Shown: positions 7,174 to 11,983, counted from the first letter of the stretch. The stretch is 64,000 nucleotides of DNA from Frankiales bacterium (GCA_025465465.1 JAODND010000007.1:55102-119101); one strand, 5' to 3'. The notes: generated from the letters alone by a model not told the origin. Program-made: numbers and translations.

Positions 7174-8292
7174 TCAGCGACGGGCGCGGTCGCTCATCCG
7201 GCGCAGCGGCCGGCCTTCGGCGGGTTGTACGGGGAGCGCCTGCAGGACCTGGGCCGGAGGGGTGACGGCCGACGAGGGGCGCGGCAGCCGGAGCGTCAGG
7301 ATCGTGCCCTTGCCGCGCTGCGCGTCGATCTCGAGCGAGCCGCCGGAGAGCCGGGCGCGCTCGAGGAGCAGGCCGAGGCCGACGTGCCGGCCGCGGTCCG
7401 GGCGCACGGCGGCGGGGTCGAAGCCGGGACCCTGGTCGCGCACCTGGGCGACGACCGAGTCCTCCAGCACCTGCAGCGACACCACCGCGTCGTCCACGTC
7501 GGCGTGCTTGACGACGTTGAGCAGCGCCTCCTGGAAGAACCGGTAGACGGTGACGGCGGAGGCGAGCGGCAGCGGGTACGGCGACTCGGGCCACTCGACC
7601 TGCACGGCGAGGCCATAGCGGGAGCTCATGTCCAGGCGCAGCCCACCGACGGCCGACGCGAGGTCGCCGTCGCGCAGGGCCGGCGGACGGGTGCGCGCCA
7701 TGACCGCGCGTACCTGCTCCTCGGCGTCCTCGACGTAGTCGGCGACCTTGCTGACGTCGGGGTCCCCGGCCAGCATCGAGCGGGCGATCATGAGCGACTG
7801 CGCCACGGTGTCGTGCAGCTCGGCGGCGAGCTGCCCACGTGCGCCCTCCTCCGCGGCGACGAGGCCGGACAGCAGCTCGAAGACACCGGCACCGGCGGTC
7901 TCGGCCTCGCGGCGGTGCCGCTCTCCGAGCTCGTCGGCGACGCGCACCCGCAGGTGCAGGGCGTCGAGCGTGCGGGCGAGCTCCGCGACCTCGAGCGAGG
8001 AGCGGGCGACGAGACGGGTGCTCGCGACCGGCAGTCCGGGCTCGGCGAGGCGCCGGGCGGCGTCCTCGTGGAGCGACCGCAGGGCGCTCGCGAGCTGGAT
8101 GGCCGCGACGACGGAGCAGAGCACGACGAGCAGGCCGGCGCAGGCTCCGGCAGCCAGCGCCCGGTCGGTGGTGGGCGTCAGCGCGCCGTCGACCTGGAGC
8201 ACCGCTGCGATGACCCCGCATACGGTGAGGACCGCGCCTCCCACGAGGAGCGCGGCCCAGACCGCGAGCGGCAGCCCGCGTCGACGGGTCAC
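7174..8292 (-). CDS. sensor histidine kinase (2 TM, HAMP-like, HisKA_3, HATPase_c)
   Basis: H-box AAELHDTVAQSL; C-terminal N/G boxes (VVKHA..., DQGPGF, GLGLLLERA); GTGA overlap with the upstream gene. Confidence 0.85.
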   Translation of the reverse strand: MTRRRGLPLAVWAALLVGGAVLTVCGVIAAVLQVDGALTPTTDRALAAGACAGLLVVLCSVVAAIQLASALRSLHEDAARRLAEPGLPVASTRLVARSSLEVAELARTLDALHLRVRVADELGERHRREAETAGAGVFELLSGLVAAEEGARGQLAAELHDTVAQSLMIARSMLAGDPDVSKVADYVEDAEEQVRAVMARTRPPALRDGDLASAVGGLRLDMSSRYGLAVQVEWPESPYPLPLASAVTVYRFFQEALLNVVKHADVDDAVVSLQVLEDSVVAQVRDQGPGFDPAAVRPDRGRHVGLGLLLERARLSGGSLEIDAQRGKGTILTLRLPRPSSAVTPPAQVLQALPVQPAEGRPLRRMSDRARR

Positions 8293-9692
8293 CGGAGGAT
8301 GCCCGTGGTCGTCCAGTCCGTGGCGGGGCGACTCGGGACGGCGGGCGTCTCCGTGCCACCCACACCCACGAGATCCGGGTCAGCGGCCAGGGCGATGGCT
8401 CCGAGCAGCGACGCGACGGCGCGCTCGACCAGGTGCAGCTCCTCGACGATGTCGTCGACCCCGCCGTCGGCCTCGGCCAGCCGCGCGAGCCGGTCGGCCG
8501 ACTCGCGCAGGACCAGCAGGGCGGGTGCTGTCGCGGCACCCAGGTCGGCGATGCCGCGCGCCGCGCTGCCCGCTGCGGAGACCTGCTGCGACGCGGTGCG
8601 GGCCTGCTCGCGCAGGTCGGCGACGGACAGCCAACCCTGGGCCTGGCTGACGAGCACCTCGGCGAGGCGGACGTCGGCCCGGCCGAAGGCCGGCGAGCCC
8701 ACCCCTCGGCGGATGACGATGACGGCCTGTGGTCCGGCGGGTCCCTCGAGCACGCCCGAGCACCACGGCCGGCCCTCCTCGAAGCCGACGCTGACGCCCT
8801 TCGAGCCGAGCGCGCGCATCACCCAGGGCTCGTCGAAGACCTCGGCCTCGACGCGCAGCCGCTGCGGCGTGCCGCCCTCGTCGCCCGCGTAGCGGACCGG
8901 TCCGTCCGCCGCGAGCAGCACCATCTCGACGTCGGCCCCGCCGAACAGCCGGGCGGCCGCCGTGACCACGACGCGCGCCGAGGAGTCGGAGCTGCGGCCG
9001 GTGGCCCGCTCCTGACCGGCGGCGAGCTCCGCAAACAACCGCGCCTCCTGCGTCTGCCGGGTCTGCTGGTCGTAGGAGGTCCAGAGCAGGGCAAGGGGTA
9101 CGACGAGGCCGGACAGTCCCAGTGGGGCCGTCATCCCGAGGTAGGCGGCGAGCAGGCCGATCGAGCTGTTGCCTGCGGTGTGCACGAGCGAGAGCGGCAG
9201 CGAGGTGACGAGCATCGGGACGAACGGCCGCCGGCTGGTGACCGAGACGGCGAGGCCGACGAGGGTGTTGTTGATGAGGAACCAGGCGGCGAGGCCGGCC
9301 ATGGCTCCGAAGATCCCGCCACCGCACGCTGCGGCGACGAGCGACCCGACCGCCGCGCCGCTGGTGAAGATCGAGAGGTTGAACAGCTTCTTCACGGTGG
9401 GGCGGCGCAACGCCGTCTGGGCGATGAGGACGCCGAGGAAGACGCCGAGGGTGGTCCAGCTGCCGGTGCCGATGACCCAGGCGCCGCCGAGCGCGCTCTC
9501 GGTGAGCGAGAAGCTCCAGCTCTGCCGGCCGAACTGCAGGTTGACGACGGCCATCTCGGACCCGGCCACGGCCAGCGCCAGCACGGGCACGGCCCACCAG
9601 GCCGGGCTCGCGAAGACGTCGAAGCAGGTGGCGAGCACGCCGACGACCGCCGTGGCAGCAGCCACGGCGGAGACGACGCGCGTCGGGCTCAC
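8289..9692 (-). CDS. polytopic membrane protein with cytoplasmic GAF-like domain
   Basis: About 7 TM segments in the first ~210 aa, then a soluble alpha/beta region and a helical tail. GTGA overlaps at both ends (8289-8292, 9689-9692). Confidence 0.65.
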   Translation of the reverse strand: MSPTRVVSAVAAATAVVGVLATCFDVFASPAWWAVPVLALAVAGSEMAVVNLQFGRQSWSFSLTESALGGAWVIGTGSWTTLGVFLGVLIAQTALRRPTVKKLFNLSIFTSGAAVGSLVAAACGGGIFGAMAGLAAWFLINNTLVGLAVSVTSRRPFVPMLVTSLPLSLVHTAGNSSIGLLAAYLGMTAPLGLSGLVVPLALLWTSYDQQTRQTQEARLFAELAAGQERATGRSSDSSARVVVTAAARLFGGADVEMVLLAADGPVRYAGDEGGTPQRLRVEAEVFDEPWVMRALGSKGVSVGFEEGRPWCSGVLEGPAGPQAVIVIRRGVGSPAFGRADVRLAEVLVSQAQGWLSVADLREQARTASQQVSAAGSAARGIADLGAATAPALLVLRESADRLARLAEADGGVDDIVEELHLVERAVASLLGAIALAADPDLVGVGGTETPAVPSRPATDWTTTGILR

Positions 9693-11089: not shown

Positions 11090-11365
11090 GCGGTCCTCCT
11101 GAGGGCTGTGTTCGTCACTGCTTCGGCAGGCAAGGGGGCCGACTGCAGCCCTGGCGCGTCTTGTCAGCCGATCGGCCTAACAGGCTTCCTTGGGCCAACT
11201 GGAGCAACTTCCCGCTACAGGAGTGGCGCCGGGCAGCCGAAAGAGGGTGTAGATCGCGGGGATCGACCCCGCAACGAAGTGGTGGAGGACGCGGTGGCAG
11301 CCGGTCTCGAGGGCGCGCTGGAAAGCATTCCGGCGCAGGCTGGGGAGAACCCTGGCTTCTCCGCC

Positions 11366-11983
11366 ATGGTCGTGGACGACCACCCGCTGGTGCGGGAGTC
11401 GATGGTGAACCGCCTCAAGATGATGGGCGCTCGCGAGGTCGTCGAGGCAGCCACCATCGGTGAGGCCCGCGCCCGCGCGAACCTCTCCGGTCCGCGTGAG
11501 CTGTGCGTCCTCGACCTCGGTCTGCCGGACGGCTCCGGCCTCGACCTGCTCGCCGACCTGCGCTCCGCGGGCTGGCAGCGCCTCGTCGTGCTGTCCGCAG
11601 CCGACGATCCCTACAGCGTGCGCGCCGCTTTCGTGGCCGGCGCCCAGGGCTACCTGCTGAAGTCCGCCTCCCCCGTCGTCGTCGCCGACGGCGTACGCCG
11701 GGTGCTCGACGGCGGCGTCTACGCCGACCCGTCGGTCGCCTCGCTGCTCGCCGCGGGACTGCGTGGCGGCCCGGTCGACACCGGCGTCTCCGAGCTCTCC
11801 GGCCGCGAGGTCGAGGTGCTCCGGCTGGTGGCCGACGGTCAGTCCAACAAGCAGATCGGCGACGAGCTCGGCCTGTCGGCCCTGACCGTCAAGTCGCACC
11901 TGGCCCGGATCGCCCGCAAGCTGGGCACCGGTGACCGCGCCGAGATGGTTGCCCTGGCGATGCGCGCGGGTGTCATCCGCTAG
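11366..11983 (+). CDS. LuxR/NarL-family response regulator
   Basis: Receiver motifs (VVDDHPLV, LDLGLPDGSG) plus GerE HTH (LSGREVEVLRLVADGQSNKQIG); ATG at 11366. Confidence 0.85.
   Translation: MVVDDHPLVRESMVNRLKMMGAREVVEAATIGEARARANLSGPRELCVLDLGLPDGSGLDLLADLRSAGWQRLVVLSAADDPYSVRAAFVAGAQGYLLKSASPVVVADGVRRVLDGGVYADPSVASLLAAGLRGGPVDTGVSELSGREVEVLRLVADGQSNKQIGDELGLSALTVKSHLARIARKLGTGDRAEMVALAMRAGVIR

Follow-up and report, generated by a model that had tools for sequence, protein, structure and literature searches.

A stretch of 64,000 nucleotides (nt) from a Frankiales bacterium (GCA_025465465.1 JAODND010000007.1:55102-119101), referred to below as the window, was analysed for a signalling cassette at positions 7174-11983. 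The cassette encodes a putatively secreted S8 peptidase (subtilase) ending in a tandem array of tryptophan (Trp) pentapeptides, a membrane protein that we call MEM, a histidine kinase (HK) and a divergently transcribed response regulator (RR). Gene neighbourhoods show that the linkage of the protease-repeat gene to the sensor domain of MEM is conserved across four output types, namely a separate kinase, a fused kinase, GGDEF-EAL proteins and an HD-GYP protein. We propose that the secreted S8 and its Trp tail act, on balance probably, on the input side of this sensor, which appears to be a relative of the MASE9 family. All the evidence is comparative, and every member identified to date belongs to an uncultured soil lineage.

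The four open reading frames (ORFs; kinase, MEM, S8 peptidase and regulator) stand in the ORF listing where an earlier reading of the DNA, made from the letters alone (the sequence-only reading), had placed them. The features are as follows.

9689-11089, minus strand: S8 (subtilase) peptidase, 466 amino acids (aa); from the ORF, PF00082, the catalytic residues and an AlphaFold (AF2) model
9731-9817, minus strand: Trp pentapeptide array at the S8 C-terminus, ASSWS five times and then VGTW, with a 15-nt period
8289-9692, minus strand: MEM, membrane protein of 467 aa and putative stand-alone membrane sensor; from homologues, the AF2 model and Foldseek
9075-9692, minus strand: MASE9-like membrane domain of MEM (aa 1-206); from remote homology and the model
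8688-8990, minus strand: GAF-like domain of MEM (aa ~235-335); from the fold match
7174-8292, minus strand: probable HisKA_3-type histidine kinase (HK), 372 aa; from HATPase_c, HisKA_3-type relatives and DesK
11282-11983, plus strand: NarL/LuxR-type response regulator (RR), 233 aa; from Response_reg and GerE, with the most likely start taken from orthologues
11090-11281, no strand: divergent promoter region, a candidate operator/promoter; from conserved motifs

Relatives of the cassette were collected by a scan of one genome per species, which gave 80 loci encoding MEM relatives, all of them metagenome-assembled genomes (MAGs) labelled Frankiales, Mycobacteriales, Frankiaceae, Jatrophihabitantaceae, Acidothermus or similar. 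The closest genome record, a 'Frankiales bacterium' MAG, encodes a MEM 98% identical to that of the window. GTGA start/stop overlaps are visible at 9689-9692 (S8 to MEM) and 8289-8292 (MEM to HK). Among the related loci the first junction has a 4-nt NTGA overlap in 48 of 56 cases and a 1-nt overlap in 4 more; the second has a 4-nt NTGA overlap in 47 of 74, the remainder being mostly gaps of 1-28 nt. Since they recur at both junctions across related loci, the GTGA overlaps are not chance. An AGGAGG element lies 5 nt upstream of the GTG start of S8, and the ribosome-binding site of MEM (GGAGG) is encoded by the final S8 codons, 9 nt before the MEM start. Within the clade MEM, HK and RR occur together in 62 of 62 complete loci and S8 is present in 47 of them. 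Both the overlaps and the co-conserved, coupled operon of three genes described in the sequence-only reading are thus borne out by the neighbourhood comparison.

Linkage of the Trp repeat to the sensor

The protease protein matches Peptidase_S8 (PF00082, E 1e-37) and no other Pfam domain. Residues D128, H168, N269 and S350 are invariant in 20 orthologues and provide the triad in subtilase order together with the oxyanion Asn. The N-terminus (aa ~1-30), judged by eye, resembles a signal peptide with a basic N-region and a hydrophobic stretch at aa ~8-30. In the AF2 model an I9-like beta-alpha-beta propeptide (aa ~34-85) and the catalytic domain are confident and the tail has a pLDDT of 22-35 without regular structure; the tail is thus predicted to be disordered. 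The array of the window is called by TRF with a period of 15 and 4.7 copies. Every orthologous tail ends in such a tandem array with Trp at each fifth residue (61 of the 61 tails examined), the number of units being 5-18 with a median of 8. When the unit is written in the register P4-P3-P2-P1-P1', P4 is Ala in 86% of the units and in 57/61 loci, P3 is Ser or Asn, P2 is Ser, Ala or Thr, P1 is Trp and P1' is Ser, Ala or Gly; the unit types include ASSWS, ANSWS, ANAWA, ASSWG, AGAWG, AATWS, AKSWS, AMSWS, ARMWG and STSWS. On this comparison no other feature of the protease persists as well as the Trp pentapeptide array.

The units of the window differ in synonymous codons, which argues for selection on the peptide sequence and not merely for recent slippage. 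The number of units shifts quickly, with five in the window against six in an orthologue of 94% identity. A pair of loci with a fused sensor (L213, 3167-4981, and L214, 828-2570) shows very rapid change in array copy number: the two S8 proteins differ by 24 residues, about five units, all of them inside (GSSWS)n, and the downstream GGDEF-EAL sensor of 884 aa is 100% identical. Natural subtilisins have a strong hydrophobic preference at S1 and S4 (PMC7935941). Since the fixed Ala and Trp stand three apart, that is at P4 and P1 of these favoured subsites, the tail array looks like a string of subtilase cleavage sites. The pentapeptide-repeat family (A[D/N]LXX) places its large residue differently from the Trp units; no Pfam profile of that beta-helical family matches the S8 protein, and its model contains no beta-helical fold.

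Three observations concern the array itself. In one locus (L055) two separate Trp-repeat stretches, (AASWS)n at 5241-5405 and (AGSWS)n at 5569-5673, lie between the S8 catalytic domain and MEM. Two apparent natural fusions of S8 and MEM (P0122 and P0233) were rejected as frameshifted gene calls with the Trp-repeat DNA in another frame (...RRVVERRVLV...). The 15-nt repeat seems prone to such assembly or gene-calling errors.

The repeat can persist without the protease. Two lineages lacking S8 (L035 and L070/L071) keep a small ORF with a signal peptide, recognised by eye, and Trp repeats: in L035 it has about 100 aa and contains ANSWSVPGA four times, and in L070 and L071 it has 61 aa and contains ...GSSWSLAGSSWSF.... 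A GTGA overlap joins the end of each of these mini-ORFs to the start of MEM. The mini-ORFs of L070 and L071 show 9 synonymous and 4 non-synonymous codon differences, with 0 non-synonymous differences in the repeat. Because the mini-ORFs retain the repeat and its coupling to MEM, it is the repeat rather than the protease domain that selection has retained beside MEM.

The arrangement extends to a remote branch (L087-L090), in which MEM is ~25%, S8 ~45%, HK ~46% and RR ~47% identical to the window proteins. There RR is again divergent from S8, MEM and HK in that order, in three unrelated genomic neighbourhoods, and the S8 tails read (STSWS)x7-11. In two loci of this branch (L089, 9534-10806, and L090, 7592-8792) two short conserved ORFs of about 50 and 95-100 aa come after the cassette, together with a stand-alone EAL protein, a neighbour that hints at a link to cyclic di-GMP (c-di-GMP) in the remote branch too.

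Furthermore, the protease-repeat gene accompanies relatives in which the sensor domain is fused to its output. Starting from the sensor, three fused-domain relatives were sampled, and in all three a Trp-tailed S8 lies directly upstream; a start from the repeat added two such systems.

L211: sensor MASE9-PAS-HisKA-HATPase; S8 tail ...SAVSWSALSWSGTTWSAVSWSADTWS
L159: sensor kinase (MASE9-PAS-HisKA-HATPase) with an N-terminus that fits the profile of MEM; S8 tail (ARSWN)n
L212: sensor MASE-like-GAF-GGDEF-EAL, with GTGA overlap; S8 tail (GSAWT)x~22
L213/L214: second GGDEF-EAL protein, MASE-like-GAF-GGDEF-EAL; S8 tail (GSSWS)n
L106: transmembrane (TM)-HD-GYP, the sole Pfam match of the TM part being a weak one to MASE9 (E 0.049); S8 tail (AIKWS)n

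The S8 proteins of these systems are 32-35% identical to that of the window and 35-41% among themselves. In a metagenome scan for the pattern (GCN NNN NNN TGG NNN)x5 the matches listed were mostly unrelated tandem repeats, and among them only L106, L119, L129 and L159 were informative. As the c-di-GMP enzymes carry no transcription factor, the protease cannot be just a gene switched by the system; it is the sensor domain itself to which the linkage applies. The suggestion of the sequence-only reading that the ASSWS tail matters has therefore gained weight from its presence in all the tails examined, from its survival as a mini-gene without the protease domain and from its place beside MASE9-like sensors with other outputs.

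The sensor, its kinase and the regulator

MEM itself gives no Pfam or NCBIfam match at all, including none to Pfam GAF or to a LiaF-type domain, and the MASE9 profile (PF20972) finds no match in it at E<=10. It has 726 detectable homologues with very high conservation, none of which carries a name; no match to it was found in plasmid records. The invariant motifs include LQFGRQxWxFSLTE, H-x-AGN-x-SIGLLAA, PLxLLWxSYDQ and a terminal DWTTTG, the last closing a helical, conserved C-terminal region; no output domain is present. Residues 459-467 (DWTTTG-x-LR; 8292-8318, minus strand), invariant in the clade, overlap the expected region of the ribosome-binding signal of the kinase. A proposal that the C-terminus is a degenerate DHp domain, with EELHLVERAV resembling an H-box, was rejected by hhalign against the kinase family (probability 0.15%).

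The AF2 model of MEM has a mean pLDDT of 66, with 80-90 in the membrane part and ~70-85 in the GAF-like domain. Its helices span residues 3-24, 34-47, 64-74, 78-94, 99-122, 126-153, 157-188 and 194-206; the short segments 34-47 and 64-74 flank a hairpin with the invariant LQFGRQxWxFSLTE. The predicted outer loops have 3-9 residues, and the short loop between the first two predicted helices carries Trp32, which is invariant, and Trp33, conserved in at least 90% of the sequences. Thus, the plain membrane protein of about seven TM helices expected from the sequence gives way to a model with eight helical segments, two of them short and arranged around a hairpin. Residues 235-335 form an alpha/beta domain followed by long C-terminal helices. 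In a Foldseek search of the PDB the top ranks for this domain are predominantly GAF domains, with weak scores (E 0.016-0.09, TM-score 0.5-0.69), and the homologous position is occupied by Pfam GAF in P0262/P0264. The earlier label 'GAF-like' accordingly draws its support from the fold and finds no counterpart by sequence in Pfam.

A profile search over 1.8 billion representatives gave 874 clusters matching MEM. The relatives with E values of 1e-20 to 1e-15 are proteins of 700-880 aa in which the N-terminal domain of MEM is fused to PAS-HisKA-HATPase or GAF-GGDEF-EAL. Three remote homologues (P0241, P0247 and P0268) reach PF20972 at 24.3-26.6 bits against a cutoff of 24.3, and this profile is matched by 4 of 17 close members of the MEM family with a best E of 6e-4. 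MASE9 is defined as a membrane domain of eight segments with membrane-embedded charged residues, in which two short segments make up an intramembrane hairpin; ligand binding has been proposed to take place inside the membrane, and the domain has no known ligand (bioRxiv 10.1101/2021.11.05.467447). The model of MEM shows the eight segments, two short, with the hairpin, and the remote homologues show the varied outputs. Since the window protein stays below the threshold and only relatives match the profile, we regard MEM as a MASE9-like relative and not as a threshold member. On remote homology and a model of medium confidence, MEM is best described as a membrane sensor of MASE9-like type that stands alone and carries a GAF-like domain.

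HK consists of two N-terminal TM helices around an outer loop of ~10 residues, a conserved linker helix, a DHp domain and HATPase_c (E 1e-10). The HisKA_3 profile scores only 18.6 bits, below the cutoff of 24; the assignment to this type is backed by NCBIfam alignments to UhpB, NarQ, NarX and LiaS and by DesK as the best solved relative, so that the earlier description as a HisKA_3 kinase with two TM helices is supported. The motifs AAELH(160)DTVAQSL, EALLNVVKHA, DQGPGF and GLGLLLE correspond to the H-box with His160 and to the N, G1 and G2 boxes. In 66 orthologues the first ~70 residues, which hold the TM region, are poorly conserved and residues 100-340 highly conserved; the mean pairwise distance is 0.62 in the TM region versus 0.25 in the cytoplasmic part. 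By this comparison the two-helix anchor lacks both the size and the constancy that sensing would require. A HATPase_c kinase is encoded directly downstream of every MEM relative for which DNA is available there, usually with an overlap, and the pairing holds in distant relatives from unrelated contexts (two pairs in L081, and L083, L084 and L086). As the anchor of HK is small and poorly conserved and MEM has no output domain, MEM is probably the sensor subunit of HK. The two would probably form a sensor kinase divided over two proteins, with MEM as the sensing part and HK, through a putative contact, as the transmitting part. In L081 the two MEM-kinase pairs lie within 7 kb, and two of the distant pairs without a protease, in L081 (4091-4816) and L084 (7339-7998), share a neighbour of ~220-240 aa with no Pfam match.

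RR matches Response_reg (E 1e-15) and GerE (E 4e-19), and its best solved relatives are DevR, NarL and VraR. The motifs VVDDHP, LDLGLPDG, VVLSA and YLLKSA are present, leaving the acidic pocket, the phospho-acceptor Asp, the Ser and the Lys intact. Because the pocket is complete, an identification of RR as a WhiI orthologue, considered for its high conservation and its position near hemE, was dropped as unlikely; according to a review, WhiI does not have the key phosphorylation residues and is absent from Frankia. RR is 80-100% identical across the clade even where MEM is only about 50-85%, an unusually strong constraint on the regulator. The ~80 nt before ATG 11366 are conserved among related loci up to a GTG GTG pair. 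The resulting N-terminal extension of 28 aa (11282-11365) is conserved as protein (M/V-EDAVAAGLExALxSIPAQ...GF(S/T)AMVVDD) and two orthologues have ATG where the window has GTG 11282; for these reasons the start is most likely GTG 11282 and not ATG 11366, RR covering 11282-11983 with 233 aa. With this start the divergent gap is 192 bp instead of the 276 bp given before.

Within this gap a partly palindromic motif, TAGGCCG(A/T)(A/T)CGGCTGACA, occurs at 11162-11179, ~73-90 nt upstream of the S8 start, and a conserved CTGCAGT follows ~24 nt downstream of it. About 30 loci conserve the two elements, variants such as TAGTCCGAACGGGCGACA being found in more distant ones, and the palindromic motif is single-copy within the window. 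These motifs make 11090-11281 a candidate operator/promoter. Scans returned 0 sigma-70 promoters, 0 intrinsic terminators and no Rfam match.

Proposed mechanism and alternatives

We propose that the cassette is a vertically inherited and probably autoregulated signalling unit, in which the exported protease and its disordered Trp array would act on the MASE9-like sensor. The tail most likely represents a tandem array of the own cleavage sites of the protease, P4 being Ala and P1 Trp. Cleavage would either free x-A-x-x-W peptides or expose stubs ending in Trp, and the sensor would detect these putative ligands at or within the outer face of the membrane, which would result in a self-reporting or quorum-like loop. 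MEM would then control HK, most likely by direct contact, HK would phosphorylate the NarL-type RR, and RR would probably act at the conserved motif in the divergent promoter. The cue may take the form of free peptides, of the intact tail or of proteolysis. A more specific version, which we advance only tentatively, sees in the Trp array the precursor of an autoinducer, present in several copies and joined to the protease that matures it; self-cleavage behind each Trp would free x-A-x-x-W peptides as ligands of the MASE9-like family. A pheromone precursor of several copies matured by a protease of the S8 family is familiar from the alpha-factor of yeast and Kex2. In Bacillus, the tandemly duplicated pheromone propeptides of the Rap-Phr systems are matured by extracellular proteases (PMC11343458).

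Several results weigh against the action of the tail on the sensor. The 15 loci without S8 are spread over about ten branches of the MEM tree, which indicates repeated loss, and intergenic regions of these loci gave only insignificant matches to S8 remnants. In 12 of the 62 complete loci, from about eight separate lineages, there is neither a protease nor any Trp-repeat ORF, and the same is true of distant MEM-kinase pairs (two in L081, and L083 and L084); the sensor is thus able to work where no repeat is encoded nearby. The conservation of MEM is undiminished in loci without S8, with no relaxed selection. Co-variation of unit type with the membrane domain of MEM is suggestive by the partial Mantel test (r 0.52, p 0.001), although sister pairs chosen to be phylogenetically independent give no significance (p 0.14) and the column associations between repeat unit and MEM follow phylogeny. 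The nearest relatives always share their unit, unlike in classical pherotype systems. Finally, the assignment of the window MEM itself to MASE9 is sub-threshold, and the sample of fused architectures is small, comprising five systems.

Part of this evidence agrees better with an envelope or secretion-stress system, in which MEM and HK sense the state of the membrane or envelope and S8 is the output, serving quality control or remodelling, with the Trp tail as a mere anchor to the surface of the membrane or cell wall. We consider this unlikely but worth weighing: the protease has been lost repeatedly without relaxation of MEM, distant MEM-kinase pairs do without it, Trp favours membrane interfaces, the ligand of MASE9 has been proposed to bind within the membrane, and two-component systems beside proteases are a known theme, as in MprAB-PepD and CssRS-HtrA. 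An output protease is difficult to reconcile with the persistence of the protease-repeat gene at sensors having a GGDEF-EAL or HD-GYP output, with no regulator to drive it, with mini-genes that retain the repeat and drop the protease domain, and with the position of the protease as the first, translationally coupled gene of the sensor operon.

More doubtful is a role of the uncleaved tail as a tethered co-receptor or subunit docked on the outer face of the MASE9-like domain, the signal being its displacement or its degradation by own or foreign proteases. S8 and the mini-ORFs are alike coupled to MEM by 4 nt, which points to a fixed stoichiometry, the copy number is very variable at constant unit chemistry, the partial Mantel signal sits in the membrane domain of MEM, and the invariant Trp32, with the nearly invariant Trp33, lies in the short loop between the first two predicted helices. 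Nevertheless, the tail is predicted to be disordered and the spacing of Ala (P4) and Trp (P1) is better explained by cleavage; this role draws on the same evidence as the action of the tail as a cleavable array, so the two cannot be separated here. That the protease instead processes the sensor or a third protein, the repeats serving only for recruitment, is very improbable in spite of the adjacency and coupling of S8 and MEM and of the secreted serine proteases, such as SpoIVB and CtpB, that trigger membrane signalling, given that the predicted outer loops of MEM offer little to cut and that the mini-ORFs stand without any protease domain.

Known systems and genomic setting

Full-text searches of the literature gave no description of a pairing between a protease-repeat gene and a membrane sensor; neither the paper defining MASE9 (bioRxiv 10.1101/2021.11.05.467447) nor a survey of c-di-GMP in Streptomyces names a protease partner. 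The view of the sequence-only reading that the circuit could not be matched to a described system thus holds for this pairing, and not for the components, since MEM belongs with MASE9 sensor domains and HK and RR are an ordinary HisKA_3/NarL pair.

With MASE9 proteins such as TM1467 and HdgA of S. venezuelae (bioRxiv 10.1101/2021.11.05.467447) MEM shares the N-terminal polytopic domain of eight helical segments, the short hairpin pair and the membrane charges, as well as the promiscuous pairing with HD-GYP, GGDEF-EAL and kinase outputs; its remote homologues reach the PF20972 threshold. It differs in having a separate kinase in place of an output domain of its own and in lying below that threshold, and no ligand or partner had been proposed for MASE9. 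The LiaFSR and VraTSR systems resemble the cassette: their HisKA_3 kinase has a minimal extracellular loop, their regulator is of the NarL type, and the gene of an accessory membrane protein lies just upstream of that of the kinase. LiaF and VraT, however, are of another fold without MASE9 or GAF and give no match with MEM; LiaF is an inhibitor, and neither a protease nor a repeat peptide is found there.

As in ComQXPA and Agr, a processing enzyme, a putative peptide precursor, a polytopic membrane sensor with its kinase and a regulator are found in one locus. ComP and ComA are likewise of the HisKA_3 and NarL types, and the activity of ComX depends on Trp. In the present cassette, in contrast, protease and putative precursor form one protein, with the latter as 5-18 tandem units, and sensor and kinase are two separate proteins. 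The input module is also found with c-di-GMP enzymes, there is no modification enzyme, and close relatives show no pherotype-like diversity. The Rap-Phr systems offer Sec-exported propeptides, several pheromone copies, maturation by an extracellular S8-family protease and pentapeptide products; yet Phr peptides are imported and bind the cytoplasmic Rap, the protease is unlinked to the precursor and there is no membrane sensor (PMC11343458). In HbpS-SenS-SenR, MprAB-PepD and CssRS-HtrA a gene for a secreted accessory protein or protease also lies beside an actinobacterial or Firmicute two-component system, but the protein families are unrelated, and both the repeat tail and a MASE9-type sensor standing alone are absent from all three.

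MASE membrane sensor domains are common in bacterial signalling. One recognisable partner, the Trp-tailed and putatively secreted subtilase, accompanies one MASE9-like subfamily across the outputs named above, and this pairing provides a testable guess at what a sensor family without a known ligand detects. If peptides are indeed released, Actinobacteria would possess a form of peptide signalling with precursor and protease in one protein, which would be a new class of communication by peptides, and the peptides would feed two-component or c-di-GMP signalling in different actinobacteria. The cassette also illustrates neatly how a sensor and a kinase can be encoded as two proteins coupled in translation.

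The window cassette is flanked by URO-D, EamA and DUF3000 on one side and by GH5 and RNase D on the other (Pfam). Mapping the nine proteins of the window onto the relatives gives the order RNase D and RR in one direction, S8 (where present), MEM and HK divergent from them, DUF3000 convergent with HK, and then EamA and URO-D in the direction of HK. In all related loci that reach far enough to include the two flanks, the module has RNase D on one side and DUF3000 on the other, and the GC content is uniform across the region, which does not agree with the accessory insertion suggested from the sequence alone; only GH5 is sporadic. MEM is about 50-70% identical in some loci where RR is still 80-100%. 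The signalling module is thus fixed and vertically inherited on the timescale of the lineage, and GH5 is the variable element of the neighbourhood. The module may still stem from an ancient insertion, since the remote branch has the cassette elsewhere. The GH5 gene (cellulase family; 12050-13180, plus strand) is found only in the closest relatives (L001-L005, L008 and L073), with two copies in L008. The longest ORF of RNase D (13092-14426, plus strand) overlaps the end of GH5 by 89 nt, and its true start lies probably further downstream.

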